64,000 nucleotides of DNA, taken from assembly GCA_012295275.1 (NCBI GenBank), contig CM022667.1, positions 5,208,001 to 5,272,000 of the forward strand, written 5' to 3'. The notes under the pieces are model-generated. The model worked only from the letters and a program-made list of their open reading frames with translations, was not told the origin of the DNA and made no database searches. A program made the position numbers and the translations under genes. Each line of letters starts with the position of its first letter. The stretch's first letter is position 1. This DNA comes from Chrysomallon squamiferum. Its lineage: Eukaryota > Animalia > Mollusca. Shown here piece after piece: positions 3,024 to 64,000 of this stretch.

Positions 3024-3347
3024 CTCGAGTGCTTTTAATACACGGAGTATGACTGACATCAGTGGAATATCCATCAGAACACATCCATTGGCCTTCGTCA
3101 ACTTCCTTGTGAAACTTCTCTATACCGATAGTAATTTGTGTCGGTGAATCTACCCGAGCGCAGTATCCTGGCCGATGTCCGTTGGTTATACACATTGTTG
3201 TCTGGTAATTGCAAAATATAACTGTTTGTTTATTTGGCCTAAATACTCTTATTCCATTTGTTACAGTGCCATTCATGGTACATGTTAATTTTGTAGGAAA
3301 TCCTTCTTCGGCTTCATCCAAGCAGTCAATATATGTTCTTGCTCGTC
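3024..3347 (-). CDS. Ig-like exon type B, copy 1 (RARTYIDCLDEAEEG...DEGQWMC...PCIKSTR)
   Basis: ttgctttccag acceptor, 324 nt, phase 1-1, 7 Cys; donor AG|GCCAGT (variant of AG|GCAAGT in other copies). Confidence 0.8.
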
Positions 3348-23489: not shown

Positions 23490-23516
23490 CATTGTCATTA
23501 CTGTCCCTTTTATGTC
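23490..23516 (-). CDS. 27-nt microexon (RHKRDSNDN)
   Basis: tttttaatcag acceptor, G|GTAAGT donor, phase 1-1. Confidence 0.7.
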
Positions 23517-34261: not shown

Positions 34262-34585
34262 CTCGAGTGCTTTTAATACATGGAGTATCAGTGACATTAG
34301 TAGGAAATCCATCAGAACATATCCATTGGCCTTCATCAACTTCCTTGTGGAACTTCTCTATGCCGATAGTAATTTATGTCGGTGAATCTATCCGAGCGCA
34401 GTATCCTGGCTTCTCGCCATTGGTTTCACACATTGTTGCAAGGTAATTGCAAGTTATAACTTCTTGTTTATTTGGCCTTAATACTCTTATTCCATTTCTT
34501 ACAGTGCCCTTCATGTTACATGCTAATTTTGTAGGTAATCCTTCTTCGGCTTCATCCAAGCAGTCAGTATATGTTCTTGCTCTTC
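34262..34585 (-). pseudogene. Type B Ig exon with in-frame stop (CAA>TAA at 34374-34376)
   Basis: 324 nt, intact splice sites, SPTQ becomes SPT*. Confidence 0.8.
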
Positions 34586-38576: not shown

Positions 38577-38900
38577 CTCGAGACCTTTTAATACATGGAG
38601 TATCAGTGACATTATTAGGATATCCATCAGAACATATCCATTGGCCTTCGTCATCTTCCTTGTGGAACTTCTCTATACCGATAGTAATTTGTGTCGGTGA
38701 ATCTATCCGAGCGCAGTATCCTGGCCTATTGCCCATGGTTCCACACATTGTTGTCAGGTAATTGCAAGTTATAACTTCTTCTTTAGTTGGATTTAATACT
38801 CTTATTCCAGTTCTTACAGTGCCCTTCATGTTACATGTTAATTTTGTAGGTAATCCTTCTTCGGCTTCATCCAAGCAGTCAGTATATGTTCTTGCCCTTC
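38577..38900 (-). CDS. Ig-like exon type B, copy 7
   Basis: 324 nt open exon, AG|GCAAGT donor. Confidence 0.85.
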
Positions 38901-42705: not shown

Positions 42706-44189
42706 AATAATAATAATAATTATTATTTATATTATTGATAATATAATATAATATAATATAATATAATTTAACATAAGATAACGTAACATTACGTAATATT
42801 AAATAAAACGTACACGGTGCCCACTAACATACTGTTGATATGTTAGAAAACAGTATTTACACACTCACATGATATGATTAGAATCTCTAGAATTGTAAGG
42901 AAGCGAATGTTTTCCATAATATGATTTCAAGCTATTATCTGAAAAAAAAAAAAAAAAAATAAATAAAAAAACTTTTTAAGACGATTGTACTTTTGTTTTC
43001 AGTTTCGATTCGCTTTCATACAGAATGTTTAAGTACCTATTTTGCGATGTATCAAAAAAAATAAAAAAATGAACAAAATATAAATGAAAAAAAAAAATCT
43101 ATGTATCTATCTGTATCTATCTATCTATCTAAAACAAAATATGGTCATAGGAGATAATGTGTTCAGTAGACGAATATATCTATTTCTGATATAGTTATTT
43201 TTAATACATGCAAAGGCAAACATACACACAGAGACACAACATACACAATTTTATATTTATTGATTTATATAATTTTTTTTTTTTTTTTTTTACAAAGTTG
43301 AATATAATTATTGTTATTACTGTCCTTGCAAATGTTTATAATTATATATATTAAAAGATGTCACTTTATACAACTACATATAATCAATCGGAATCCTGGG
43401 TGAAAAGTTACACAACTTTTATTGAGCCGATAAGCGCAAAGTCCTGGCGTTGATTTCCATTTTAAAACTGTGACTTCAACTATTGTAAAATATCGGTCAA
43501 AGTACGTATCGTTAAAACTGCTCTATTCGAAAGATAATTATTCATTTATCATAAATTTAAATAATAAAAATAAAAAGTCTTCATGCATTTATAATTATCA
43601 AATAATCATTTTATTAACAGTCAATAAGGTGGCCGCAGGGCGGAATTGTCACGTCTGCCAAAAAAGTTATTGCAACTCAAATGTATTAAACATCAAGTTC
43701 ACTCTATACATTTTTAGGTTAGTTAGATTCGATATTTACGACTAATCGTCAAACAACACATATGCATACACAGAAAGTTACTGGGTCCAGTAAATCAAAT
43801 ATAAATATCCAGAATAGTCAGATATTCAGTAACGTTCACAATCGTCCATTTCTTCTATCTGTGATGTAAAGTTTTGACATAATGAAAATGCCGACTGAGT
43901 GATTTTATGAGAAAAGATGAACATACCCAGTAAAGTATGGATGAATTTTTTTCCCCTTCTATTTCTTTTCCTAACAGTTTTCTTCACTTTGTTTTGATGT
44001 GTATGTGGCGAAATGATGAATGTACAGTACATTACAGGCACCTCCGATCAGACGCTACACTATGCTAATTGACTACCTCACAGATTTGTGTGTTAATGGT
44101 GATGACGTCATTTCCTTTTAAAGATCAATATTAAAAACCGATGTATCAGAATACAACCGAAACAATATAGACGGACGTTATTTTCACTT

Positions 44190-44562
44190 TCATTTATATA
44201 TATAATGAAAACAAAATAAAACAATATGTTTGAATAGCAGAAGTGCTCTGTATATGTATATAGAAATATACTTTCTTCCCACTATATGTGCATGCATTCT
44301 CTTTCAGTATTGTAAGACTGAATTGAAATGCATGCTCATATAGTGGCAAGAAAATGCTATTCAAACATATTGTTTTATTTTGTTTTCATTATATATATAA
44401 TGAAAACAAAATATATATATAATGATGACAAAATAAAACAATATGTTTGAATAGCAGGAGTGCTCTGTGTATGTATGTAGAAATATGCCACTATATGTGC
44501 ATGCATTCTCTTTCATTATTGTGAGACTGAATTGAAATTCATGCATATATAGTGGCAAGAAA
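44190..44562. repeat. Direct duplication with an intervening inverted copy (28-bp perfect arms 44355-44382 / 44429-44456)
   Basis: tgctattcaaacatattgttttattttg ... caaaataaaacaatatgtttgaatagca. Confidence 0.8.
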
Positions 44563-45109
44563 AATTGTTCTTCTTCTTCTTTTAATCCTTTAATACTGTG
44601 TAGAGTCCTCTACATTTTAAAATAATAAAATAAAATATGAGAAGACATAACGGTTAAAATTGGGGTAGAGATAACTGAGTAGATTTTACATATGAGCAAA
44701 ACATGGCATGGAGTTATAGACTATAATAATATAGAGTAATCGCCCACAGAAACTGATATGAAGTCAACATCTTTGAGCTCTGTTCAGATATGAAGATCGT
44801 CACATCGGTATTGTCAGCATTCAGCTTCAGCATGTTACAGTGAGAACAGCAGAACATGCACTTTGGTGTTGTTACCGCTTAAAACAGTGTCTTCCGAAAA
44901 GACAGACGTCCCATAACGCAGACGTATGAAAACAACACAAGACACGGTTGAGCGATTACTAATGATCTGCCGTGTACCTTGAATAATACATGTAGTTAAT
45001 AATGGAATAGTCTGAAACAACTAAATACAGAACACAGAACAAAATTATAAAAATTAGATTTATTTAAAGATTTTAACGCGTCCATTTGACGCCTTCTTAT
45101 CCTAATTTT

Positions 45110-46110
45110 AAAAGATGTCCAACGGCATCCATGAACTGAATGGGTGTTTTCTGGCCAAGGGTTAGCTGTGCCGTCAGTCTCACGAGTCTGTTTTCTTCTG
45201 TTTATAAAGTCTCTTTCTTAGTGGTCGGATAGATCCAATGTTGTTTACTTGTCTCAATTTAACACGTTCTGATGTTTCTATTCCTTTCATCAATTCAACA
45301 AACTTGTATGTATTTGGATGGCGAAGTGGAATTGACCAGTTCATTCTGGAATGAAAACCCTCCAGATTATTGGTTGTACCTGGGCCGGTGGTCAGATGAT
45401 GGTTTCACAAAATCCAAGGAAATCTTTAATTGGAGGAAAAGATGATTGTAGTACATGATTGTTGTACATGATTATAGTACACGATTCTTCAACAGACTGA
45501 ACACTCTACTGTATGCTATTCTCTGTTTGTTGAGAAGAAGAGCAGACACACAGGGATACTTAGTGGCTCCGTCCACAGCATGGATGATATGTAATTGTTT
45601 CCACAATGCTGGACAAGAAGATAAAGTTCTGTCCATAAAAATGGATTCTGAAGCCTGTAGAGCTACGATTTGTTCGTCTGTCGAAAAAACAAGAATGTTA
45701 TCTTCATTTCCATGCTAATTAAAATTTATCATCTTCCGTCATTTGTCTTTATCCATGGTTCTTCCATGATGACTTCGGCTCTAGTCTGTGGTAGGGCAGG
45801 AATGAGAAGTCGTCTCTCTCTATACAGTGCACTGCTCATAATGGGAAAGGAAGGCAAATGAGGAACAATTTCTGATGCTTGCTTTGCAACCTCATCATTG
45901 TATATTTTCTGCACTGGTGTCGTTTCTTCTCTTACTCGATTCCGTAGTGTGCTAACAAACCGAGCAACATTCCAGTCATTTGGAAGATGGACGTGTTCTG
46001 AATAAAATCGCCGACAGTGGTGCACTTCCCGGTACACGTTTCTACCACGCATCTCCAGTGAAAGCTTTCCCCTCTGGTGCGATTCGTTACAAATAGAATT
46101 CTTTCCAGTA
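45110..46110 (-). mobile_element. Degenerate MULE/Mutator-like transposase remnant
   Basis: Minus-strand fragments FMDRTLSSCPALWKQLHIIHAV (like MULE xDGTF..P..QLY.IH) and TTNNLEGFHSRMN...HPNTYKFVELMK (typical MULE C-terminal motif); stops and frameshifts. Confidence 0.75.
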
Positions 46111-46739
46111 TTATATGTGGTCTACCTTTTTGTGACTGACCACATTATACCCTTGTAAGATCGGCCATGATCTGAATCAGTTTTAGTAAGTGCATGTAGT
46201 TAATGTAGAAGAACTGTTATAATGTTGTGTCTGTGATTAGCTATGATTTAAATCCACGATCAATCAGAGACATAATATCATTGATATATAAACAATTTTT
46301 ACCTGAAGTGAAATGTTGCAGTGGAGAAGCCCATGAGCTAAACTCCCAAAACACAGTATCTTTACATTTATTAATTTTGTTTAGTAGATTACAATTACGT
46401 TCTCCTAGTTGTTAGTGTGGAACTGGTAGATATAACCACAACAACAGGCGGTAGCTTGCTGAACAGACAGGTGCAGTACCACTAAAGCAGTCAGAGGTGT
46501 ACAGGATGCATTACAAAGAGTTTTGTCTATCAAATGGCATGTCTGCATTATGTCTGTCTCTTGGCACCAGATACCAGACGTCACACGCACATCACGTGAC
46601 ACTGCCGATTAATATGAAATTCCTCGTAAACAGTTATCCAGGCATATTCAGACTGATATCCGTTTAGTAAACAAAGAATAATGTTTGCGTTTTTAGTTTG
46701 GCATTTATTGAATTATATAATTTTGTTTCGATTCCATAT

Positions 46740-47760: not shown

Positions 47761-47896
47761 TTACTGTGAAACGATATTGCTTCTGTTAAACTTGTCAGCT
47801 TCAAAAGCAGGGTTGTCAAACGATTTGTTTACTTCTGTTGTTGAGCCAAACCTATTCTCAGGAAATGTTTCGTAAACAACTTTGAGTTTCCTGAAC
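47761..47896 (-). CDS. Terminal cytoplasmic-tail exon (FRKLKVVYETFPENRFGSTTEVNKSFDNPAFEADKFNRSNIVSQ*)
   Basis: ctttcacag acceptor, 136 nt to TAA, colinear with 28730-28865. Confidence 0.85.
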
Positions 47897-48072
47897 CTGT
47901 GAAAGAAATTATAATTTAATTTCATTTTTCTTTTTTTAAAATAGTGGCACTACTATAAACCTGACGTGTGAAATACAGATGTCTGTCTTTATGTTTCCAA
48001 ACACACACAGACACAAATAAAACAACAGAGGAGAATAAACAACGAAACTGGATATGATATACATTTTAAACG

Positions 48073-48882: not shown

Positions 48883-48940
48883 CAGGAAAAAATACAAACA
48901 AAAACAAAACAACAAACAAAAACTGAGATAATATATATAG
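48883..48940 (-). CDS. Candidate transmembrane exon (AIYIISVFVCCFVFVCIFSW)
   Basis: ttctctag acceptor, 58 nt phase 1-2 fits neighbours, but donor GTTGCA is weak and sequence is low complexity. Confidence 0.3.
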
Positions 48941-50728: not shown

Positions 50729-51031
50729 TTATAATGGCAGTAACAACGGTAACATGGAAAAACAACATTCGGCTCCCATTACAAGTAAAAAAAAAAAAAA
50801 AATGGTACTACCGTATTAGTAGAATTAATTGCACTAACACTCTAACAGTACTAAAATTAATGTCATTACTACTACCATATGAAAGATATTGCTACTTCTA
50901 CCAATTATACCAAATACAACAGCAACTAGTATTTATTACGCGAATAAAATTAATAATCAATAACCTTCTTTTATATTTATTTATTTATAAACAGTACACA
51001 TTATATAAAACGAAACATAAAAACAACCTAC

Positions 51032-51076
51032 CAAGAAAAGTTTTTGTTGCGGAAGATTTGGCACTGAAAGGACGGT
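51032..51076 (-). CDS. 45-nt juxtamembrane exon (NRPFSAKSSATKTFL)
   Basis: ttttccag/GTAGGT, phase 1-1; paralogue of 29716-29760. Confidence 0.75.
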
Positions 51077-51370
51077 CTGGAAAAGCGAAATAACAACAAA
51101 AGTAATCATTATGGAAATAATAATGATAATAAGGCACGCGTGCTCTCACACATTCATACATCAGATGTTACTACGGTGACAACGAAGTAGATAAGATACC
51201 CATTCTCGTGTTTAAACGCTCTTTTTTATATATAAATGGTAAACAAGGAAAATATTTAGGTAACTAAATAAATAAATTAAAGGAAGTGAATACAGAAGTT
51301 GCAGACGAACTAAAGCAAGGGGAAAAAATCAGAGAGAGAGAGAGAGAGAATTCGTTGAAAAAATACTCAC

Positions 51371-51397
51371 TCCTATGTTCTTCAGCGACCGAAGTTT
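51371..51397 (-). CDS. 27-nt stalk microexon (ETSVAEEHR)
   Basis: cag/GTGAGT, phase 1-1. Confidence 0.6.
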
Positions 51398-51580
51398 CTG
51401 TCCAAGACATTTAAAACAATATATATATATAATTTGCATGAAGCAATACAGTTAGAGAGATAAGAAAAAAGTGGATATAGATTGAGAATAAGAATGGTAA
51501 AAAACAACAGCAATGTTTAGTTCCAGAAAGATACGTACGTATATAGAGTTATGAACATTTTTAGAGAATGGAGACCTTAC

Positions 51581-51607
51581 CGTGACGATTCTCCGTCCCA
51601 AAGCTTT
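51581..51607 (-). CDS. 27-nt stalk microexon (QSFGTENRH)
   Basis: tcttcag/GTAAGG, phase 1-1. Confidence 0.7.
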
Positions 51608-51613
51608 CTGAAG

Positions 51614-51664
<51 letters not shown>

Positions 51665-51897
51665 GTAAGAAGAAGAAGAAGAAGAGTAAAAGCAAGAATG
51701 TCATGCCACAACAAAGAAGAAGAAAACAACAAAATAAAACAACAATAATAAGAAGAAGAACAATAAGAAAACTAGCATCAAAATTTAAAGATGATGACCA
51801 TAGGAGATGATGATTATTATGGTGATGACGACGATGATGATAATAACCGTAATAACAAAAAATACAATATATATATTTTTGTTCTGATGATACTTAC

Positions 51898-51924
51898 GAC
51901 TATAATCCACATCCTGAGAAGTCC
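51898..51924 (-). CDS. 27-nt stalk microexon (GTSQDVDYS)
   Basis: ttctccag/GTAAGT, phase 1-1. Confidence 0.8.
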
Positions 51925-52059
51925 CTGGAGAAGATATCAAAGAAATAGAAAAGTAAATAAATAAATGAATAAATACATTTATGACGCTACCACTAGGCAG
52001 TGTTTCTTGTAAAATAAATATTATATTTGACTAGTAGGAAACACATTCAGCAGTGCGCG

Positions 52060-52532: not shown

Positions 52533-52919
52533 CATATTATCATTGTGATGTCTTTCTGTTTCAAAAGATACTGATGATGAACTAGTATAGATAAATAAAT
52601 AATGAATAGTGAGTACACAAAATAAATAATTAAAAAAAAATAAATAAAAGTACAAAGCGAAAACCGAACATCACAAACAATAATGATAATAATTGAATAT
52701 TAACATGATGGATAAAGAAGATTGTCGTTCGTATTTTTTATTACTTTTACCTACTTGTGTTCATTATAGGAAATATAGTATGACTAAAGCATTTGATATA
52801 TTTTATTACTTAAGTACTATTTACAGGAAATGTAATAAGACTACTGTATTTTATCAACTTGTGGTAGTTAACTACAGTTTATAGGAGATGTTAAAAAGAT
52901 TAGCTATAATGAAACTTAC

Positions 52920-52937
52920 CCTGAACAACACTGTCGT
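52920..52937 (-). CDS. 18-nt microexon (DDSVVQ)
   Basis: tttcag/GTAAGT, phase 1-1. Confidence 0.75.
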
Positions 52938-53416
52938 CTGAAATTTATGAGGAAAATAAAACAAATGATAGAGAAAAATTAAAGTAAAATAAATAACTCA
53001 ATAATAATGAAATGTAGTATGGTTTAACCTACTTGTGTTAGTTAGGTACAATTTGCAGCAAATGCACTACGACTAATATATAATGAACAAATTTATCTAT
53101 CTGTGTCTGTTAAGTACCACTTGCACACAAGGCAGCACGCATTTTATCTACTTGAATTAGGTACAATTTATAGGAAATGAGTTATGCATTATTAAGATTG
53201 GTTATTATAAAAGTTAATATCAACAACACTGTGTGCTGTAGGTTGTGAGAATGATAAAACAAATTAACAAACAAATTATGAAAAGAAATTTTTTATAAAG
53301 CTACTAAATATATAGTTATTAAAGAAATAATAAAGTAAATAAATAAAATAAATAAATAATAAAAACAGAAATTAAATATTAAAGAAAACAAGAACAGCAA
53401 CAACAACAACAACAAA

Positions 53417-53471
<55 letters not shown>

Positions 53472-53958
53472 AATAAAATAAATTACAAATAGTAATAGTG
53501 GGAAGAAAAGGTTGCATTTGTTCTTACTGCACTTTTATCCCTTGTCCCTTTTTACATTTTTTATTATTATTTTTTTAATGGTATTTTATATGCTAATGCT
53601 GAATATCTAATAATCAATTGTGAACTACAAGTTCTGAGTCAATAAGTAGCAGAAATTATTTGAATGTATTGCAGTCCTCTAATAAAACTGAGCTGATTAA
53701 TAAAGTGGTATCAACGCATTTCATGTTTATGTAATAAAAGAAAAACCGAAAAACATAAAAAAATAAAAATTATGAGAAATTAAACAAATGAGATAGAAGT
53801 AAAACATCAAATTAAAAGTGAAAGAAAAAAAATATTTTTGTAAAGCATTTCGAACAGTATTAAAATGGTAACAGCAATATTTTACCTTACTGTGTTAGTA
53901 AAGAACAGTTTATAGATATGACTAATTTCTTAATAAGATTCAGTATCACGAAACTTAC

Positions 53959-53976
53959 CATCGATATAACTGGCGA
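53959..53976 (-). CDS. 18-nt microexon (VASYID)
   Basis: ttttcag/GTAAGT, phase 1-1. Confidence 0.8.
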
Positions 53977-54099
53977 CTGAAAAAAAAAAGAAGCAAAATA
54001 GAAACAAATAAAGAAGGAGAAAAATATTAAGTAAATATTAATTTTAAAGAGAAAAATATTTAGTAAAATAAATCAATAAGTAACAACACAACGGAAGTA

Positions 54100-54450
54100 C
54101 TTTATTTGTGTTCATTAAGTACAGTTAATGGGAAATGTACTATGACTGACGGGCCTTATCTACTTGTGCTAGATAAGTACAGTTTACAGTACATGTGGTA
54201 TGACCACCGCATTTTCACTACTTATGTTAGTTAAGTATAGTTTATTGGAAATATTGATTAACTAAGGTAACTTATCAATTTCTGTTACTTAAGTATAGTT
54301 TACAGGAAACGTAGGATGACTCAAGTATTTGATCTTTTTCTGTTAATTAAGTACACTTTACAGGAAAGGCAGTATGTCTAAAATGTTTGTTTTACTTGTG
54401 TAAGGTAAATACAATTGATAGGAAATGTAGTACGACAAATGTAGTAGTAA
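54100..54450. repeat. Degenerate 58-bp intronic minisatellite (about 6 units; recurs in each larger unit)
   Basis: aagtac/aagtat-type core at 54117, 54175, 54233, 54291, 54349, 54407. Confidence 0.75.
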
Positions 54451-54475
54451 TAAGAGTAGGTATGACGAAACTTAC

Positions 54476-54493
54476 CCTCCATCTCGCTGTCGT
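54476..54493 (-). CDS. 18-nt microexon (DDSEME)
   Basis: ttttcag/GTAAGT, phase 1-1. Confidence 0.8.
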
Positions 54494-55597
54494 CTGAAAA
54501 TTGTGAGGAAAAATAAAAGAAATAAAGAAAATATATTATCAAAGAAATAATGATATTAAAGAAAAAGGTAAAGTACAATAAATAAATCAACACTAATGAA
54601 AGAAGTAAGAATATTGCCAAAGAAACAGTGATACTAAAGAAAAAGGAAAAGTACAATAAATAAATCAACAATAATAAAACATGAAGCTAAGTATTAAGAA
54701 AAGAAGAAAACATTGAAAAGAAAAACGACCAGCAACAAAAACAAAAGTTATAATAATAAAAGCCTGTTAACTTTATGGATTAGGAGTGATACCTTTAGGA
54801 CTTTTCATTATTTATTTCCAATTACTTCTTTCTGTTTAAATTATTATTGTTGTTGTTGTTTTTATTATTATTATTATTATTATTACTATTATTACTGTTG
54901 TTGTTGTTGTTGTTACTATTATTATTGTTATTATGTCAATATCTTTACCTCTATATACATCTGCATCTATATATAATTTTGTATCGATGGTATTTTATAT
55001 ACCGAGGCTGAATTATATATAGTAGTTAATTGTGAACTATAATTTGTGTGTGGATAAGTAACAGAACTTATTCGAATGTATTGCATTTCTCTAATAAATT
55101 TAAAGAGAATAAAAAAGTTGTATAAACGCGTTTCGTGGTTAAGTAATAAAAGTAAATTTTAATTTTATTTTATTTAAGTTGAGCTGCAATGAACTACGAA
55201 ACAATTACAAGTCCAGATGTCAAGATTTATCTACTGTCAATTAGAAAATGTATGACGTAAATTAACATTACTATCATTGTCTATATTTTCAGATGATATA
55301 ACAAAAATAAAATAAATAAAGCGTAAATAGACAATTAAATGGTATAATAAACATTTATAATAATATTGAACAAAAATATGGAAATCGAATAAAATAAAAA
55401 TTTAAAGAAATTAAACGGATGAGATAGAAATACAATATTAAAATATAACTGAAAAAAAAAAAAAAAAAAAAAAGAAATTGAAATGTATTACGAGGAGATT
55501 ACAGTTATAACAGCAGTATTTTACCTATCTGTGTTCTTGAAGTACAGTTTATAGGTATCACTAATTTCCTATTAAGATTTAGTTTCAGGAAACTTAC

Positions 55598-55615
55598 CAT
55601 CGAGATCACTGTCGA
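55598..55615 (-). CDS. 18-nt microexon (VDSDLD)
   Basis: ttttcag/GTAAGT, phase 1-1. Confidence 0.8.
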
Positions 55616-56317
55616 CTGAAAAGTCTTAGGAAGAAAATAAAAGCAAAGTAGAAACAAATAAAGGAGGAAAAAATATTATCAATTTATAAAGTAAATGGTA
55701 ATATTAAAGAGTAATAACAATAAAAACTAATACAAATTATGGATTAACACAGTTACATATAGCACTTTTCATTATATATTTTGAATTACTTCTTTCTTTC
55801 TAAATTATTGATGTTTTTTTTAATTATTTTTACTGTCTATATATACATATATGTGTGTTTGTGTGTGTGTATGTGTGTGTGTCAGCGTGTGTGTTTGTGT
55901 GTGTGTGCCTATAGATACATACATTCATATGCATCTACATGTGAAGAGAAATATATATATATCTATATATATAAAGGAGAACTATAATTTTTGTGTGGAT
56001 AAGCATCCGAAAATTATTGTAATGTATTGCAGTTCTCTAATAAAATTAAGCAGATTAATGAAGTAGTATCAACGCATTTGACTTTTGTGTAATAAAAGTA
56101 AAAATTCAAATAGAATTAAATAAAAGTTAAGAGAAATTAGACGAATGCGGTAGAAATAAAATATTAAATCAAGAAATCAAAAAATATATACATATATCTG
56201 TAAAGTATTACGAGCAGATTACAGTGGTACCAACAGTATTTCGCCTAACTCTGTTCGTTAAGTTAAGTTAATAGGTATCACTAACTTTCTAATTAGATCG
56301 AATATCACGAAACTTAC

Positions 56318-56335
56318 CATCGACATCACTGGCGA
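56318..56335 (-). CDS. 18-nt microexon (VASDVD)
   Basis: ttttcag/GTAAGT, phase 1-1. Confidence 0.8.
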
Positions 56336-56838
56336 CTGAAAAGTGTTAGGAAGACAATAAAAGAAATATAGAAACAAATAAAGAAGGAAACATTTGGTAA
56401 AAAATTATAAAGTAAATATAAATACTCTAATGAAAAAATACAGTGAAATAAACTACTAATTAACAACACAACGGAAGTACTTTATTTGTGTTCATTAAGT
56501 ACAATTAATGGGAAATGTACTATGACTCACGGATCTTATCTACTTGTGTTAGATAAGTACAGTTTACAGTACATGTGGTATGGCTACCCTACTTTCACTA
56601 CTTATGTTAGTTAAGTATAGTTTATTGGAAATATTGATTAACTAAGGTATTTTATCAATTTGTTTTGCTTAAGTATAGTTGACAGGAAACGTATTTTAAC
56701 TTTTTCTCTGAGTTAAGTACAGTTTACAGGAAATGCAGTATGTCTAAAACATTTGTTTTACTTGTGTAAGGTAAGTACAATTGATAGGAAATGTAGTACG
56801 ACAAATGTAGTAATAAGAGTAGGTATAACGAAACTTAC

Positions 56839-56856
56839 CCTCCATCTCGCTGTCGT
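56839..56856 (-). CDS. 18-nt microexon (DDSEME)
   Basis: ttttcag/GTAAGT, phase 1-1. Confidence 0.8.
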
Positions 56857-57887
56857 CTGAAAATTGTGAGGAAAAATAAAAGAAATAAAGACAAAATATT
56901 ATCAAAGAAACAGTCATATTAAAGAAAAAGGAAAAGTACAATAAATAAATCAACAATGATAAAACATGAAGCTAAGTATTAAGAAAAGAAGAAAACATTC
57001 AAAAGAAAAACGACCAGCAACAAAACCAAAAGTTATAATAATAAAAACCTGTTAACTTTATGGATTAGGAGTGTTATCTTTAGGACTTTTCAATATTTAT
57101 TTCCAATTACTTCTTTCTCTTTCAATTATTATTGTTGCTGTTGTTGTTATTATTATTATCATCATCATCATCGTTATTATTATTATTGTTATTATATCAA
57201 TATCTTTACCTCTATATACATCTACATATATATATATATATATAATTTTGTTTCGATGGTATTTTATATACTAAGGCTGAATTATATATATTAGTTAATT
57301 GTGAACTATAATTTGTGTGTGGATAAGTAGCAGAACTTATTCGAATGTATTGCATTTCTCTAATAAAATTTAAAGAGAATAAAAAAGTTGTATAAACACG
57401 TTTCGTGGTTAAGTAATAAAAGTAAATTTTAATTTTATTTTATTTAAGTTGAGCTGCAATGAGCTACGAAACAATTACAAGTCCAGATGTCAAGATTTAT
57501 CTACTGTCAGTTAGAAAATGTATGACGTAAATTAACATTACTATCATTGTCTATATTTTCAGATGATATAACAAAAATAAAATAAATAAAGCGTAAATAG
57601 ACAATTAAATGGTATAATAAACATTTATAATAATATGGAACAAAAATATGGAAATCGAAAAAAAAAAAATTCAAAGAAATTAAACGAATGAGATAGAAAT
57701 ACAATATTAAAATATAACTGAAAGAAAAAAAAAAAAAAAAAAAAATTAAAAAAAAAAAAAAAAAAAATTGAAAAGTATTACGAGGAGATTACAGTTGTAA
57801 CAGCAGTATTTTACCTATCTGTGTTCTTGAAGTACAGTTTATAGGTATCACTAATTTTCTATTAAGATTTAGTTTCAGGAAACTTAC

Positions 57888-57905
57888 CATCGAGATCACT
57901 GTCGA
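57888..57905 (-). CDS. 18-nt microexon (VDSDLD)
   Basis: ttttcag/GTAAGT, phase 1-1. Confidence 0.8.
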
Positions 57906-58611
57906 CTGAAAAGTCTTAGGAAGAAAATAAAAGCAAAGTAGAAACAAATAAAGGAGGACAAAAATTATCAATTTATAAAGTAAATGGTAATATTAAAGAG
58001 TAATAACAATAAAAACTAATAACATTATGGATTAACACAGTTACATATAGCACTTTTCATTATATATTTTGAATTACTTCTTTCTTTCTAAATTATTGAT
58101 GTTTTTTTAAATTATTTTTACTGTCTATATATACATATATGCGTGTTTTGTGTGTGTGTATGTGTGTGTGTGTGTCTGCGTGTGTGTTTGTGTATGTGTG
58201 CCTATAGATACATACATTCATATGCATCTACATGTGAAGAGAATATATATATATATATATATATTTAAAGGAGGACTATAATTTTTGTGTGGATAAGCAT
58301 CCGAAAATTATTGGAATGTATTGCAGTTCTCTAATAAAACTAAGCAGATTAATGAAGTAGTATCAACGCAATTGACTTTTGTGTAATAAAAGTGAAAATT
58401 CAAATAGAATTAAATAAAAGTTAAGAGAAATTAGACGAATGCGGTAGAAATAAAATATTAAATCAAGAAATCAAGAAATATATACATATATCTGTAAAGT
58501 ATTACGAGCAGATTACAGTGGTACCAACAGTATTTCACCTAACTCTATTCGTTAAGTTAAGTTAATAGGTATCACTAACTTTCTAATTAGATTGAATATC
58601 ACGAAACTTAC

Positions 58612-58629
58612 CATCGACATCACTGGCGA
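58612..58629 (-). CDS. 18-nt microexon (VASDVD)
   Basis: ttttcag/GTAAGT, phase 1-1. Confidence 0.8.
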
Positions 58630-59132
58630 CTGAAAAGTGTTAGGAAGACAATAAAAGAAATATAGAAACAAATAAAGAAGGAAACATTTGGTAAAAAATT
58701 ATAAAGTAAATATAAATACTCTAATGAAAAAATACAGTGAAATAAACTACCAATTAACAACACAATGGAAGTACTTTATTTGTGTTCATTAAGTACAATT
58801 AATGGGAAATGTACTATGACTCACGGATCTTATCTACTTCTGGTAGATAAGTACAGTTTACAGTACATGTGGTATGACTACCCTACTTTCACTACTTATG
58901 TTAGTTAAGTATAGTTTATTGGAAATATTGATTAACTAATGTATTTTATGAATTTGTTTTGCTTAAGTATAGTTGACAGGAAACGTATTTTATCTTTTTC
59001 TATCAGTTAAGTACAGTTTACAGGAAATGCAGTATGTCTAAAATATTTGTTTTTCTTGTGTACGGTAAGTACAATTGATAGGAAATGTAGTACGACAAAT
59101 GTAGTAATAAGAGCAGGTATGACGAAACTTAC

Positions 59133-59150
59133 CCTCCATCTCGCTGTCGT
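59133..59150 (-). CDS. 18-nt microexon (DDSEME)
   Basis: ttttcag/GTAAGT, phase 1-1. Confidence 0.8.
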
Positions 59151-59437
59151 CTGAAAATTGTGAGGAAAAATAAAAGAAATAAAGAACAAATATTATCAAA
59201 GAAATAATGATATTAAAGAAAAAGGTAAAGTACAATAAATAAATCAACAATAATAAAACATGAAACTAAGTATTAAGAAAAGAAGAAAACATACAAAAGA
59301 AAAACGACCAGTAACAAAAACAAAAGTTATAATAATAAAAACGTGTTAACTTTATGGATTAGGAGTGATACCTTTAGGACTTTTCATTATTTATTTCCAA
59401 TTACTTCTTTCTGTTTAAATTATTATTGTTGTTGTTG

Positions 59438-59472
<35 letters not shown>

Positions 59473-60172
59473 GTTGTTGTTGTTGTTGTTGTTACTATTA
59501 TTATTGTTATTATGTCAATATCTTTACCTCTATATACATCTGCATATATATAAATATATATAATTTTGTATCGATGGTATTTTATATACCGAGGCTGAAT
59601 TATACATAGTAGTTAATTGTGAACTATAATTTGTGTGTGGATAAGTAACAGAACTTATTCGAATGTATTGCATTTCTCTAATAAATTTAAGGAGAATAAA
59701 AAAGTTGTATAAATGCGTTTCGTGGTAAAGTAATAAAAGTAAATTTTAATTTTATTTTATTTAAGTTGAGCTGCAATGAACTACGAAACAATTACAAGTC
59801 CAGATGTCAAGATTTATCTACTGTCAGTTAAAAAATGTATGACGTAAATTAACATTACTATCATTGTCTATATTTTCAGATGATATAACAAAAATAAAAT
59901 AAATAAAGCGTAAATAGACAATTAAATGGTATAATAAACATTTATAATAATATGGAACAAAAATATGGAACTCGAATAAAATAAAAATTTTGAGAACAAA
60001 CGGATGAGATAGAAATACAATATTAAAATATAACTGAAAGAACATAAAAAAATTGAAATCTATTACGAGGAGATTACAGTTGTAACAGCAGTATTTTGCC
60101 TATCTGTGTTCTTGAAGTACAGTTTATAGGTATCACTAATTTTCTATTAAGATTTAGTTTCAGGAAACTTAC

Positions 60173-60190
60173 CATCGAGATCACTGTCGA
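60173..60190 (-). CDS. 18-nt microexon (VDSDLD)
   Basis: ttttcag/GTAAGT, phase 1-1. Confidence 0.8.
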
Positions 60191-61109
60191 CTGAAAAGTC
60201 TTAGGAAGAAAATAAAAGCAAAGTAGAAACAAATAAAGGAGGAAAAAATATTATCAATTTATAAAGTAAATGGTAATATTAAAGAGTAATAATAATAAAA
60301 ACTAATAACATTATGGATTAACACAGTTACATATAGCTCTTTTCATTATATATTTTGAATTGCTTCTTTCTTTCTAAATGATTGATGTTTTTTATTATTT
60401 TTACTGTCTATATATGTGTGTGTGTATGTGTGTGAGTGTCAGCGTGTGTGTTTGTGTGTGTGTACCTATATATACATACATTGATATGCATCTACATATG
60501 AACAGAAATATATATCTATATATATATAGATATATATTTAAAGGAGAACTATAATTTTTGTGGTGATAAGCATCCAAAACTTATTCGAATGTATTGCATT
60601 TCTCTAATAAAATTAAGGAGAATAAAAAAGTTGTATAAATGCGTTTCGTGGTTAAGTAATAAAAGTAAATTTTAATTTTATTTTATTTAAGTTGAGCTGC
60701 AATGAGCTACGAAACAATTACAAGTCCAGATGTCAAGATTTATCTACTGTCAGTTAGAAAATGTATGACGTAAATCAACATTACTATCATTGTCTATATT
60801 TTCAGATGATATAACAAAAATAAAATAAATAAAGCGTAAACAGAGAATTAAATGGTATAATAAACATTTATAATAATATTGAACAAAAATATGGCTATCG
60901 AATAAAATAAAAATTGAGAGAAATTAAACGAAGGAGATAGAAATAAAATATTAAAATAAAACTGAAAGAACTAAAAAAAATATATATATATATTTGAAAA
61001 GCATTACCAGGAGATTACAGTGGTATCAGCAGTATTTTACCTGTGTTCCATAAGTACAGTTTATAGGTGTCACTAATTTCCTAATAAGATTTAGGTTCAG
61101 GAAACTTAC

Positions 61110-61127
61110 CATCGATATCACTGTCGA
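61110..61127 (-). CDS. 18-nt microexon (VDSDID)
   Basis: ttttcag/GTAAGT, phase 1-1. Confidence 0.8.
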
Positions 61128-61981
61128 CTGAAAAGTCTTAGGAAGAAAATAAAAGCAAAGTAGAAACAAATAAAGGATGAAGAAATATTATAAATTTATA
61201 AAGTAAATATTAGTATTAAAGAGAAAATAATTTTGCGAAATAAAGTGATAATTAACAACACAACGGCACTTCAATATCGTGTTGTGTTCATTAAGTACAA
61301 TTTATGGGGAATGTACTATGATTTACATACCTAATGTGCTTTTGTTAGGTAAGTACAGTCTAACGGAAATATTGATTAACTAACACATTTCATCTATTTG
61401 TATTACTTAAATACCAGTTTACAGGAAACGTAGAATGACTAATACAGTTTATCTATTTGTGTAAGTTAAGTAGGTTTTACAGGAAACACAGCATGACTAA
61501 TATATTTTATCAACTTAAGTTAGTTAGACACAATTTGTACGAAAGGTAGTACAACTAATGTATTAATAACAGCGGGTATGAGTGCTGTCGTCTGAAAATT
61601 GTGAAGAAAAATGAAAGAAATATAGGTTAAACGATAAAAATGTTTCAAAAGTAATAGTGATGTGGAAGAAAAAAGTAAAGTAAAATAAATAACTCAGTAC
61701 AGTTCTTTAAGAAAACTAAGCAGATTAATCAAGCAGTATGAACGCATTTAATGCTTAGGTAATAAAAGTAAAAATCGAAATAGAATAAAATAAAAATTAT
61801 CACAAAATTAAACGAATGAGATAGAAATAAAATATTAATATAAAACAAAGAGAAAATATATTTGTAAAGTATTAGGGGCACATTGCAATGGTAACAGCAG
61901 TATTTTACCTACCTCTGCTCGTTAAGTGCACTTTATAGGTGGTACTTACTTCCTAATTAAATTCAGTATCATGAAACTTAC

Positions 61982-61999
61982 CATCGACATCACTGGCGA
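61982..61999 (-). CDS. 18-nt microexon (VASDVD)
   Basis: ttttcag/GTAAGT, phase 1-1. Confidence 0.8.
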
Positions 62000-62492
62000 C
62001 TGAAAAGTGTTAGGAAGGAAATAAAATCAGTATAGAAAAAAAAATTAAAGAATGAAAAATGCTAAAAAGTTATCAAGTAAATATTATTATCCAAGAGAAA
62101 AATAATATATTGAAATAAATTAATAGTTAACAACACAAAGGGAGTACTTTATCTATTCGAGTTCATTAAGTACAATTAAATGGAAATGTACTATGACTCG
62201 CAGTTTACAGTACATGTGGTAAGACTAACGCATTTTCTCTACTTATGTTAGTTAAGTACAGTTCATTGGAACTACTGATTAACTAATGTATTTTATTAAT
62301 TTGTGTTACTTTAGTACTGTTTATAGGAAACGTAGCATGACTAACGCATTTCATATTTTTCTCTTAGTTAAGTACAGTTTATAGAAAATGCAGTATGACT
62401 AATAAATTGTTTCTACTTGAGTTAGCTAGGTACAGTTTATACGAAATGTAGTAAATTAAAGTATTAATAAGACTGGGTATGACGAAATTTAC

Positions 62493-62510
62493 CCTCAATA
62501 TTGCTGTCGA
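62493..62510 (-). pseudogene. 18-nt microexon with dead acceptor (VDSNIE)
   Basis: Acceptor ttttcag changed to ttttcgg; donor GTAAAT. Confidence 0.65.
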
Positions 62511-63054
62511 CCGAAAATAGTGAGGAAAATTGAAATAAATAAAGGGAAAATGTTACATATGAAATAGTGGTTTTAAAGATAAAGGTAAAGTGAAACAAAT
62601 AGCTCAGTGATAATGAAAAAAGAAAGTAAACATTAACAAAACAAGAAAAAATCCGAAAGATAACGGAGCAAAAACAACAACAAGAGTAATAACGATAAAA
62701 AGCAATTAATATTATGGATTAGGTGTATTACTTTTAGCTCTTTTCATTACATATTTTGAACTGTAGATAGACAGATAGGTAGATATAATGTTAGAAGAAT
62801 TGTGCTCAATTGTATTTTATATTTTAAGGCCGAATTATATGTAATCATTAATTCAGAACTATACATTTTATGTGGATAAGCAGCCGAAAATTAGTGTAAC
62901 GTATTGCAGTTCCCTAATAAAACTAATCAGATTAATGAAGTAGTATCAGCGCATTTGACGTTTGTGTAATAAAAGTAAAAATTCAAATAGAATTAAATAA
63001 AAGTTAAGAGAAATTAAACGAATGCGCTAGAAATAAAATATTAAATGAAAAATG

Positions 63055-63108
<54 letters not shown>

Positions 63109-63218
63109 GTAAAGCATTACGAGCAGATTACAGTGGTACCAACAGTATTTCACCTACTGTTCGTTAAGTTAAGAGGTTTGAATCATTTTGTAATTGGATT
63201 GAATATCACGAAACTTAC

Positions 63219-63236
63219 CACCGACATCACTGGAGA
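63219..63236 (-). CDS. 18-nt microexon (VSSDVG)
   Basis: tttccag/GTAAGT, phase 1-1. Confidence 0.8.
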
Positions 63237-63732
63237 CTGGAAAGTGTCAGGAAGAAAATAAAAAATGTAGAAACAAAAAGAAAAGGAAAAAATGTTAAAA
63301 AGTTATAAAGTAAATGTAAATATTCTAGAGAAAAAATAGAATGAAATAAATGAATCGTTGACAACACAAAGGCAGTACTTTATTAATGTTCATTGTGTAC
63401 AATTAATATGAAATGTTCTACCGACTCACGGATCTTATCTACTTATGTTAGATCTGTACAGGTTACAATACATGTGGTATGTCTACCGTTTTTTTCTATG
63501 CTTATCTTAGTTTCGTATAGTTTACTGGAAACGCAGTATAACTAATGTATTGTATCACTTTGTTTTACTTAAGTACAGTTTAGAGGAAACGTAGCATATC
63601 CAATATATTTTATCTTTTTGTGTTGTGTACACTTTACAGGCAATGCAGAATGTTTAATATATTTCTTCTACTTGTGTTAGATAAGCACAAACGATAGAAA
63701 ATGTAGTACGACTAATGTATGACAAAACTTAC

Positions 63733-63750
63733 CCTCATCATTGCTGTCGT
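63733..63750 (-). CDS. 18-nt microexon (DDSNDE)
   Basis: ttttcag/GTAAGT, phase 1-1. Confidence 0.8.
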
Positions 63751-64000
63751 CTGAAAATATGAGGAAAAACAAAAGAAAGGAAGAAAAAAGATAAAGGGTT
63801 AAAAAAAAGTATATTTAATAGATATCAAAGAAAATGTAAAGTGAAATAAATAAATCAATAATAATAATGAAACAAGAAACTAAATATTAAATAAAAAAAA
63901 AAAAAAAAAATAGAAAAGAAAAAAAAAATTGAAAAGAAAAACGACCAACAACAACAAAAGTAATAATAATAAAAATCTATTAACATTATGGATTAGGAGT

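Follow-up and report, generated by a model that had tools for sequence, protein, structure and literature searches.

An array of predicted 18-nt microexons with an acidic Ser/Asp repeat in a putative Ig-like membrane receptor gene of Chrysomallon squamiferum

The DNA analyzed here is a stretch of 64,000 nucleotides from the mollusc Chrysomallon squamiferum (GenBank assembly GCA_012295275.1, contig CM022667.1, positions 5,208,001 to 5,272,000 of the forward strand); this whole stretch is called the window, and coordinates are counted from its first letter. The minus strand of the window was found to be full of phase 1-1 exons, which comprise 321-nt exons of type A, 321-324-nt exons of type B, one exon of type C and linkers of 21, 27 and 45 nt. 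Three genes are represented. Gene 2 is complete, gene 3 is present with its 5′ part, and gene 1 with its 3′ part, which comprises a microexon array, a stalk, a membrane anchor and a tail. The array of gene 1, a series of 14 putative coding exons of 18 nt each, is the subject of this report. Of the exons of gene 1, 20 fall within the window, and 18 of these are symmetric and no longer than 45 nt; the exons farther upstream lie beyond the window.

Both strands of the window were searched with the regular expression YAG-N18-GT[AG]AG, and 14 matches with the strong donor GTAAGT were obtained. These were the same 14 units of exactly 18 nt, running from YAG to GTAAGTTT, that had been described in the initial annotation of this DNA; the strand had not been given there, and all 14 are located on the minus strand (63750-52920). 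The donor was GTAAGTTT in every microexon, and the acceptor consisted of a pyrimidine tract with TTCAG in 13 cases and TCCAG in the remaining one (E2). The introns between the microexons ranged from 496 to 1219 nt. When the array is spliced in phase 1, it reads as the succession of hexapeptides given for E1 to E14 in Table 1, VASDVDVDSDLD being an example of the encoded peptide. Ser was recovered at position 3 of the hexapeptide in all 14 exons, as annotated before. The annotated acidic content (38 of 84 residues) presumed that the first residue is Asp; this residue is set by an exon beyond the window end, hence 83 residues are determinable, and 37 of these are Asp or Glu with no Lys or Arg. 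The product contains 15 Ser residues, 12 of them in an S-x-x-D/E context, and has a computed charge of about -37. The transmembrane and tail exons farther downstream determine which frame is read, and this is the acidic one. Frame 0 is open across the spliced microexons as well, and with two out of three frames open, the absence of stops carries little weight by itself. About one YAG-N18-GTAAGT match per 64 kb is expected by chance on both strands (analytic values 0.65 + 0.40), and a mean of 1.11 and a maximum of 5 matches were obtained in 200 first-order Markov simulations. The copies are duplicates and not independent events, and conservation is therefore a more meaningful test than their count.

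The 14 units were aligned together with 150 nt on each side, and each microexon was found to lie within a conserved exon-plus-flank unit of about 0.3 kb. Mean pairwise identity among the 14 copies was 1.00 at the donor (+1 to +8), 0.98 at the acceptor (-6 to -1), 0.75 in the exon and 0.41-0.69 in the flanking intron segments. Not a single indel was present within the 18 nt of any copy and many occurred in the flanks, and the codon of the invariant Ser showed synonymous variation only (AGT/AGC). A profile of the unit was used in an nhmmer search, which returned 17 near-full-length copies, all inside 52774-63881; 14 of them are live and three, absent from the initial annotation, are dead. The youngest part of the array is a 2.3-kb block of three exons (DDSEME-VASDVD-VDSDLD), present in about three copies with 90-98% identity. 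Between its two full copies the introns differ at 76 of 2126 positions, with 141 gap columns in addition, and no difference was seen at 54 exon and 78 splice-flank positions. It is clear from these data that the array grew by tandem duplication, of single units first and of the 2.3-kb three-exon block later. That unequal crossing-over has occurred is shown by the nesting of the repeats and by the dead copies. As a whole, the pattern is what one expects where selection preserves the splicing and frame of exons while copies arise and die. No conserved RNA structure was predicted around the microexons (0 pairs by RNAalifold on nine old copies), and no inverted repeats of 150 nt or longer were found.

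Two further observations were made on the surroundings and relatives of the units. A 58-nt tandem repeat occupies parts of the array introns (54123-54450, 61341-61569, 62176-62471 and others) and is related to the conserved sequence 3′ of each microexon. In the third gene, a 27-nt linker exon (23490-23516, minus strand) encodes HKRDSNDN, is followed by the donor GTAAGTTTC and is like the DD-type microexons (weak nhmmer match, E = 0.0035); judged by this resemblance, a linker exon of this type may be the source from which the array arose.

The array is directly upstream of stalk exons of 27, 27, 27 and 45 nt, which are followed by a transmembrane-like exon and then by the exon for the cytoplasmic tail (Table 1). 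The end of the paralogous gene in the window consists of 27/27/27/45-nt exons, a clear transmembrane exon at 29560-29494 (...VFVSVATFASVVVFLLVIAWK) and a tail with NPAFEADK and a stop. Frame and stop position of the gene 1 tail exon are as in the paralogue, and the encoded tail bears NKSFDNPAFEADK; comparable tails of relatives read QHDNPALEMID and QIDNPVFTQTD, an NPx[FLV]-like motif. In the transmembrane candidate at 48883-48940, the position aligned with the donor of the paralogue reads TTAAC. A second transmembrane-like exon was noticed at 48033-48047 (minus strand), upstream of the tail exon; it fits phase 0 only.

Contigs from two RNA runs of the same study (X6 and X9) and from two DNA runs (X1 and X5) were placed on 50810-52050, the stalk region. 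The four stalk exons (51924-51898, 51607-51581, 51397-51371 and 51076-51032) were spliced as predicted at GT..AG on the minus strand, with joints that did not appear in X1 and X5, and one RNA contig of 303 nt contained all four back to back with no mismatch. The exon at 51898, which was named in the initial annotation, is thus transcribed and spliced. Upstream of 51925 the RNA contigs extended by 72 nt (records 22 and 24) and by at least 255 nt (records 23 and 25) into sequence unlike the adjacent intron. In the acidic frame, the 30 visible upstream nucleotides and the junction base read YGVVEDSGTV-G, which is E14-like with GTGTTGTTG in common; this upstream tail is a consensus of two contigs with an agreement of 0.78, one of which derives from another member of the family, in which two 27-nt exons diverge. 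At the position of the array, therefore, in-frame sequence that resembles microexons is present in transcripts of the array gene or of a copy nearly identical to it. The upstream tail equals none of the 14 exons, and the use of these particular exons is thus putative only; intact, the word by which the units had been annotated, does not imply use, and the contigs with the 51924-51898 exon run upstream into a sequence of none of the 14. The designation as a stalk fares better, since the array is located at the juxtamembrane stalk of the family and the small exons downstream are spliced in RNA, with the reservation just made for the 14 exons themselves. At the other end, neither transmembrane-like exon of the window equals the one in RNA, and 15-mers of the downstream RNA tail gave only two irrelevant matches when compared with the window at up to two mismatches. 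Within an intron of this region, positions 51734-51775 had a summed depth of 1264 and 2110 in the DNA runs versus tens elsewhere, which marks a high-copy repeat.

The nature of the host protein was approached through the Ig-like exons of the window. A phmmer search with the product of an A exon gave 63 proteins at E ≤ 1e-3 and 20 at E ≤ 1e-10 (best E 1.5e-46, at most 42% identity). Twenty relatives were looked up; the 16 named ones among them all came from the vent snail Gigantopelta aegis, mostly from one chromosome, and were either called uncharacterized or misnamed; the remaining four came from ENA contigs. The neighboring genes of the window encode a domain of about 106 residues with a conserved Cys/Trp pattern (C22, W86, C88 and C101 among others). 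The relatives have a signal peptide, one to six such domains and at times classical Ig domains, and their C-terminus is either hydrophobic and GPI-like or consists of a transmembrane segment followed by a short tail. In a Pfam search of the Ig exons no family scored above threshold, and a sub-threshold V-set match was obtained for the C-type domain only. An AlphaFold2 model of the 321-nt exon product (pLDDT 84, pTM 0.79) was compared with the PDB by Foldseek; the top matches were the first Ig domain of nectin-like/SynCAM proteins and antibody V domains, with TM scores of 0.6-0.7, and the product is accordingly predicted to have an Ig V-set fold. By its stalk and tail exons, the array gene is provisionally assigned to this mollusc family, which is lineage-restricted and consists of Cys-rich V-set Ig-like membrane receptors.

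Related sequences were also looked for elsewhere. The unit-profile search of the window detected no acidic array in gene 2. No protein or transcript of the same species was found in the protein collections when these were searched with an Ig exon and with the tail exon. The exon-plus-splice-site pattern had no match in JGI metagenome contigs, and the Ig-domain alignment gave 187 pattern matches there, none of which was confirmed.

We favor, with a confidence only slightly above even, the explanation that the 14 units are genuine phase-1 coding microexons of 18 nt in a type-I membrane receptor of this mollusc-specific Cys-rich V-set Ig-like family. Several findings weigh against it. The Ig exons of the array gene itself lie beyond the window end, and the domain features of the family were read from the neighboring genes of the window; among 68 relatives, none has an acidic tract of at least 10 Asp/Glu per 30 residues. 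Much of the exon identity is owed to recent duplication, and the two youngest units alone did not reach significance (P = 0.14 for the exons and 0.06 for the splice flanks). In the RNA data, no 15-mer of the 30-nt upstream tail occurred in the window at up to two mismatches, the best pair of window microexons fitted this tail at just 16 of 30 positions, and the transmembrane-like exon in RNA (AIYIASAIVA...) matched the 48940 candidate at 20 of 30 positions (first 30 nt, hand comparison); a different allele or a paralogue may thus be the copy that is expressed. A rival explanation, which we regard as doubtful and still deserving attention, goes further and holds that the array was once a real microexon stalk, that the allele or paralogue in the window is now silent or in decay, and that a near-identical sister copy with other microexons and an intact transmembrane exon is expressed. 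It would account for RNA contigs that are identical over the 126 nt of the stalk exons and different on both sides; the degenerate transmembrane candidates of the window (the T-rich one at 48940 with TTAAC at the donor, the one at 48047 in another phase), the three unit copies already dead and the in-frame stop in one Ig exon of a neighboring gene point the same way, and most DNA contigs were merely 90-95% alike (42/71 in X1 and 47/70 in X5), suggesting several related copies. However, 14 of the 17 units retain perfect splice signals and frame, and the tail exon has kept frame and stop as in the paralogue. The runs were made from other samples of a polymorphic species, and the mismatch could come from haplotypes that differ in an array of fast turnover; moreover, among the loose ends listed for the DNA runs, none was at an exon border.

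It is improbable, in our estimation, that the units are noncoding, that is, copies of an intronic repeat whose splice-like signals are kept as decoy or stepwise-splicing sites or simply through youth. The units are indeed embedded in repeats, the 58-nt intronic satellite included, two of the three frames are open, and the RNA contigs, placed as they are on the stalk region, show none of these 18-mers directly. Against this, donors and acceptors have stayed invariant, and the 18 nt free of indels, in old copies whose flanks are no more than 41-69% alike, and the changes in the Ser codon are synonymous only. No 5′ splice site is regenerated after the AG, unlike at zero-length recursive sites, and the expressed transcripts have homologous in-frame microexon-like sequence at the array position. 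A role of the tract as Ca2+-binding module of a biomineralization protein of the shell or sclerite matrix, as brought forward in the initial annotation, is very unlikely. Composition alone (37/83 Asp/Glu, 12 Ser in the S-x-x-D/E context) and the origin of the relatives from a hydrothermal-vent snail lineage would suit it; the host family, with its V-set Ig-like domains, transmembrane or GPI-like C-termini and NPxF-type cytoplasmic tail, is not that of a secreted matrix protein, and the lack of an acidic tract in all 68 relatives argues likewise. The link to biomineralization is thus left unsupported.

If the 14 units are coding microexons, as we favor, and are included in the mRNA, the array would insert a polyanionic Ser/Asp spacer of up to 84 residues, with a net charge of about -37, between the membrane and the Ig ectodomain. 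Such a tract would be disordered and extended by its charge, and would hold the Ig ectodomain off the membrane. It might also bind cations or carry phosphate, the Ser residues in the S-x-x-D/E context making either conceivable. Its length would shift in steps of six residues by unequal crossing-over between the 0.3-kb or 2.3-kb repeat units, and exon skipping is probably a second source of such steps; because all the exons are multiples of three in phase 1-1, any subset of the microexons could be skipped without breaking the frame. The initial annotation had proposed tuning by both routes. Tuning by copy number agrees with the presence of a 2.3-kb repeat in tandem and of three decayed copies, and skipping is plausible only, from the isoforms of Gigantopelta. 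These RefSeq isoforms differ by a whole Ig exon, by a linker cassette of 16 residues or by a stalk cassette of 11 residues; in the case of the stalk cassette the junction residue changes too, which suggests a cassette in phase 1. The G. aegis genes LOC121386317, LOC121390234 and LOC121377638 belong to the same family and have small in-frame cassettes at the juxtamembrane or linker position; one cassette, RSVDYSFIKYR, has the VDYS motif in common with the 27-nt exon at 51898-51924 of the window. Unlike the window array, the Gigantopelta cassettes are single (11 or 16 residues), non-acidic and not arrayed.

The array was compared with known tandem microexons. In avian fast skeletal troponin T, as described in PMC11016001, the Tx segment is made of seven tandem P exons, each encoding one pentapeptide AHH[A/E]E, and the resulting acidic, metal- or Ca2+-binding tract is present in some isoforms only. 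Like the P exons on that description, the array consists of tandemly duplicated microexons with one peptide repeat each, here 14 hexapeptides of 18 nt. The troponin T tract differs in belonging to the intracellular thin filament, in having seven exons instead of 14 and a pentapeptide repeat, and in its documented mRNA inclusion; the genes are different, and no sequence relationship is expected. The micro-exon genes (MEGs) of schistosomes have very small symmetrical exons, from which alternative splicing produces variants differing by a few residues; in PMC4350168 they are described as small secreted proteins made mostly of microexons, grouped by protein sequence into 25 families and confined to platyhelminths, and VAL-6 is given there as a gene of conventional exons with a MEG-like stretch. 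Set beside this account, the array gene resembles VAL-6 in combining conventional exons with a microexon stretch and is unlike the MEGs as a mollusc gene for a large Ig-domain membrane receptor, whose microexons are near-identical in tandem and encode a low-complexity acidic repeat; most of its exons visible in the window are very small and symmetrical, as in the MEGs, and the genes of its family are dominated by 321-nt Ig exons. Identity with a MEG was rejected, as the gene appears to encode a mollusc Ig receptor with a membrane anchor and not a small secreted flatworm protein. A bolder proposal, which we consider speculative and rather unlikely, is that of a MEG-like diversification module outside flatworms, acquired by a vent-snail lineage within an expanded family of V-set immune-type receptors, in which unequal crossing-over and combinatorial skipping of 18-nt exons would set stalk length and charge per individual and per transcript; the mismatch between assembly and RNA microexons would be a first glimpse of such hypervariability.

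Two other systems were considered. In the PEVK region of titin, tandemly duplicated short symmetric exons of about 84 nt, separated by introns, encode a long disordered acidic spacer whose length could be set by splicing; the exons here are 18 nt, and the host proteins differ. Acidic shell-matrix proteins of the Aspein/Asprich type are secreted, have no membrane anchor and are expressed in the mineralizing mantle. A matrix protein of the Aspein type was rejected as the identity of the array gene, which continues into transmembrane-like and cytoplasmic-tail exons. No description of an acidic microexon array in a mollusc receptor was found in literature searches at title and abstract level.

Exons of 18 nt escape open reading frame callers and most gene predictors, and a receptor segment of 84 residues and -37 charges would for this reason be lacking in any annotation of this genome. 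The mollusc Ig-receptor case would join the small set of repetitive acidic spacers made from tandem symmetric microexons (troponin T P exons, PEVK and schistosome MEGs), and with 14 live and three dead copies it offers an unusually clear record of birth and death. Should splicing or copy number prove variable, the array would be a simple system for the recognition of very short exons and for the tuning of receptor stalk length and charge. The host family is itself noteworthy as an uncharacterized, lineage-restricted expansion of Cys-rich V-set receptors.

Table 1. Positions of the microexons, decayed copies, block repeat and downstream exons of gene 1 in the window
Feature	Position	Strand	Basis
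Microexon E1, 18 nt, (?)DSNDE, phase 1	63733..63750	-	attttcag, 18 nt, gtaagttt
Microexon E2, VSSDVG	63219..63236	-	regex match, sole TCCAG acceptor
Microexon E3, VASDVD	61982..61999	-	regex match
Microexon E4, VDSDID	61110..61127	-	regex match
Microexon E5, VDSDLD, with identical copies E8 and E11	60173..60190	-	regex match
Microexon E6, DDSEME, with identical copies E9 and E12	59133..59150	-	regex match
Microexon E7, VASDVD, with identical copies E3 and E10	58612..58629	-	regex match
Microexon E8, VDSDLD	57888..57905	-	regex match
Microexon E9, DDSEME	56839..56856	-	regex match
Microexon E10, VASDVD	56318..56335	-	regex match
Microexon E11, VDSDLD	55598..55615	-	regex match
Microexon E12, DDSEME	54476..54493	-	regex match
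Microexon E13, VASYID	53959..53976	-	regex match
Microexon E14, DDSVVQ	52920..52937	-	regex match
Decayed unit copy; 18-mer frame kept, acceptor CAG changed to CGG, donor GTAAAT	62493..62510	-	unit profile
Decayed unit copy; acceptor kept, 3′ half of exon and donor deleted	61583..61591	-	unit profile
Decayed unit copy; TTAACT instead of donor	53218..53235	-	unit profile
Two full ~2.3-kb three-exon tandem repeat copies (E6-E8, E9-E11)	54494..59150	-	3.6% intron substitutions
27-nt stalk exon, (G)TSQDVDYS	51898..51924	-	RNA contigs (records 22, 24), 0 mismatches
27-nt stalk exon, QSFGTENRH	51581..51607	-	RNA joint 51397/51581 in X6 and X9, not in DNA runs X1, X5
27-nt stalk exon, ETSVAEEHR	51371..51397	-	RNA joint 51076/51371 in X6 and X9, not in DNA runs
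45-nt stalk exon, NRPFSAKSSATKTFL	51032..51076	-	RNA contigs
Candidate transmembrane exon, AIYIISVFVCCFVFVCIFS, T-rich, weak donor, fits phase 1	48883..48940	-	sequence
Terminal exon, cytoplasmic tail, FRKLKVVYETFPENRF...NPAFEADK...SQ and stop	47764..47896	-	paralogous to 28864-28733

The rest of the window was also inspected. Two further genes of the family occupy 1-41200 on the minus strand, where 321-nt A exons and 321-324-nt B exons alternate in tandem with 21-nt linkers at a period of about 4.5 kb. For these two downstream genes, only a weak candidate for a signal-peptide exon was found (42917-42869). No Rfam family was matched at the gathering score and no tRNA was detected in the window. 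After each of the seven B exons, the intron begins with GC instead of GT, which makes up a conserved set of GC-AG introns; on the minus strand these introns start with GCAAGT at 38577, 34262, 21039, 16554, 11996 and 7511, and with GCCAGT at 3024. One B exon of the middle gene (34263-34583, minus strand) contains an in-frame stop (IDSPT*ITIG) and may be dead or skipped. Finally, a GC-richer island (0.36 vs. about 0.28) with broken open reading frames was observed at ~43400-46200 on the minus strand; one of these frames matched the FLYWCH zinc finger (Pfam, E = 1.5e-6), and the island, which separates two receptor genes, is probably what is left of a transposon.

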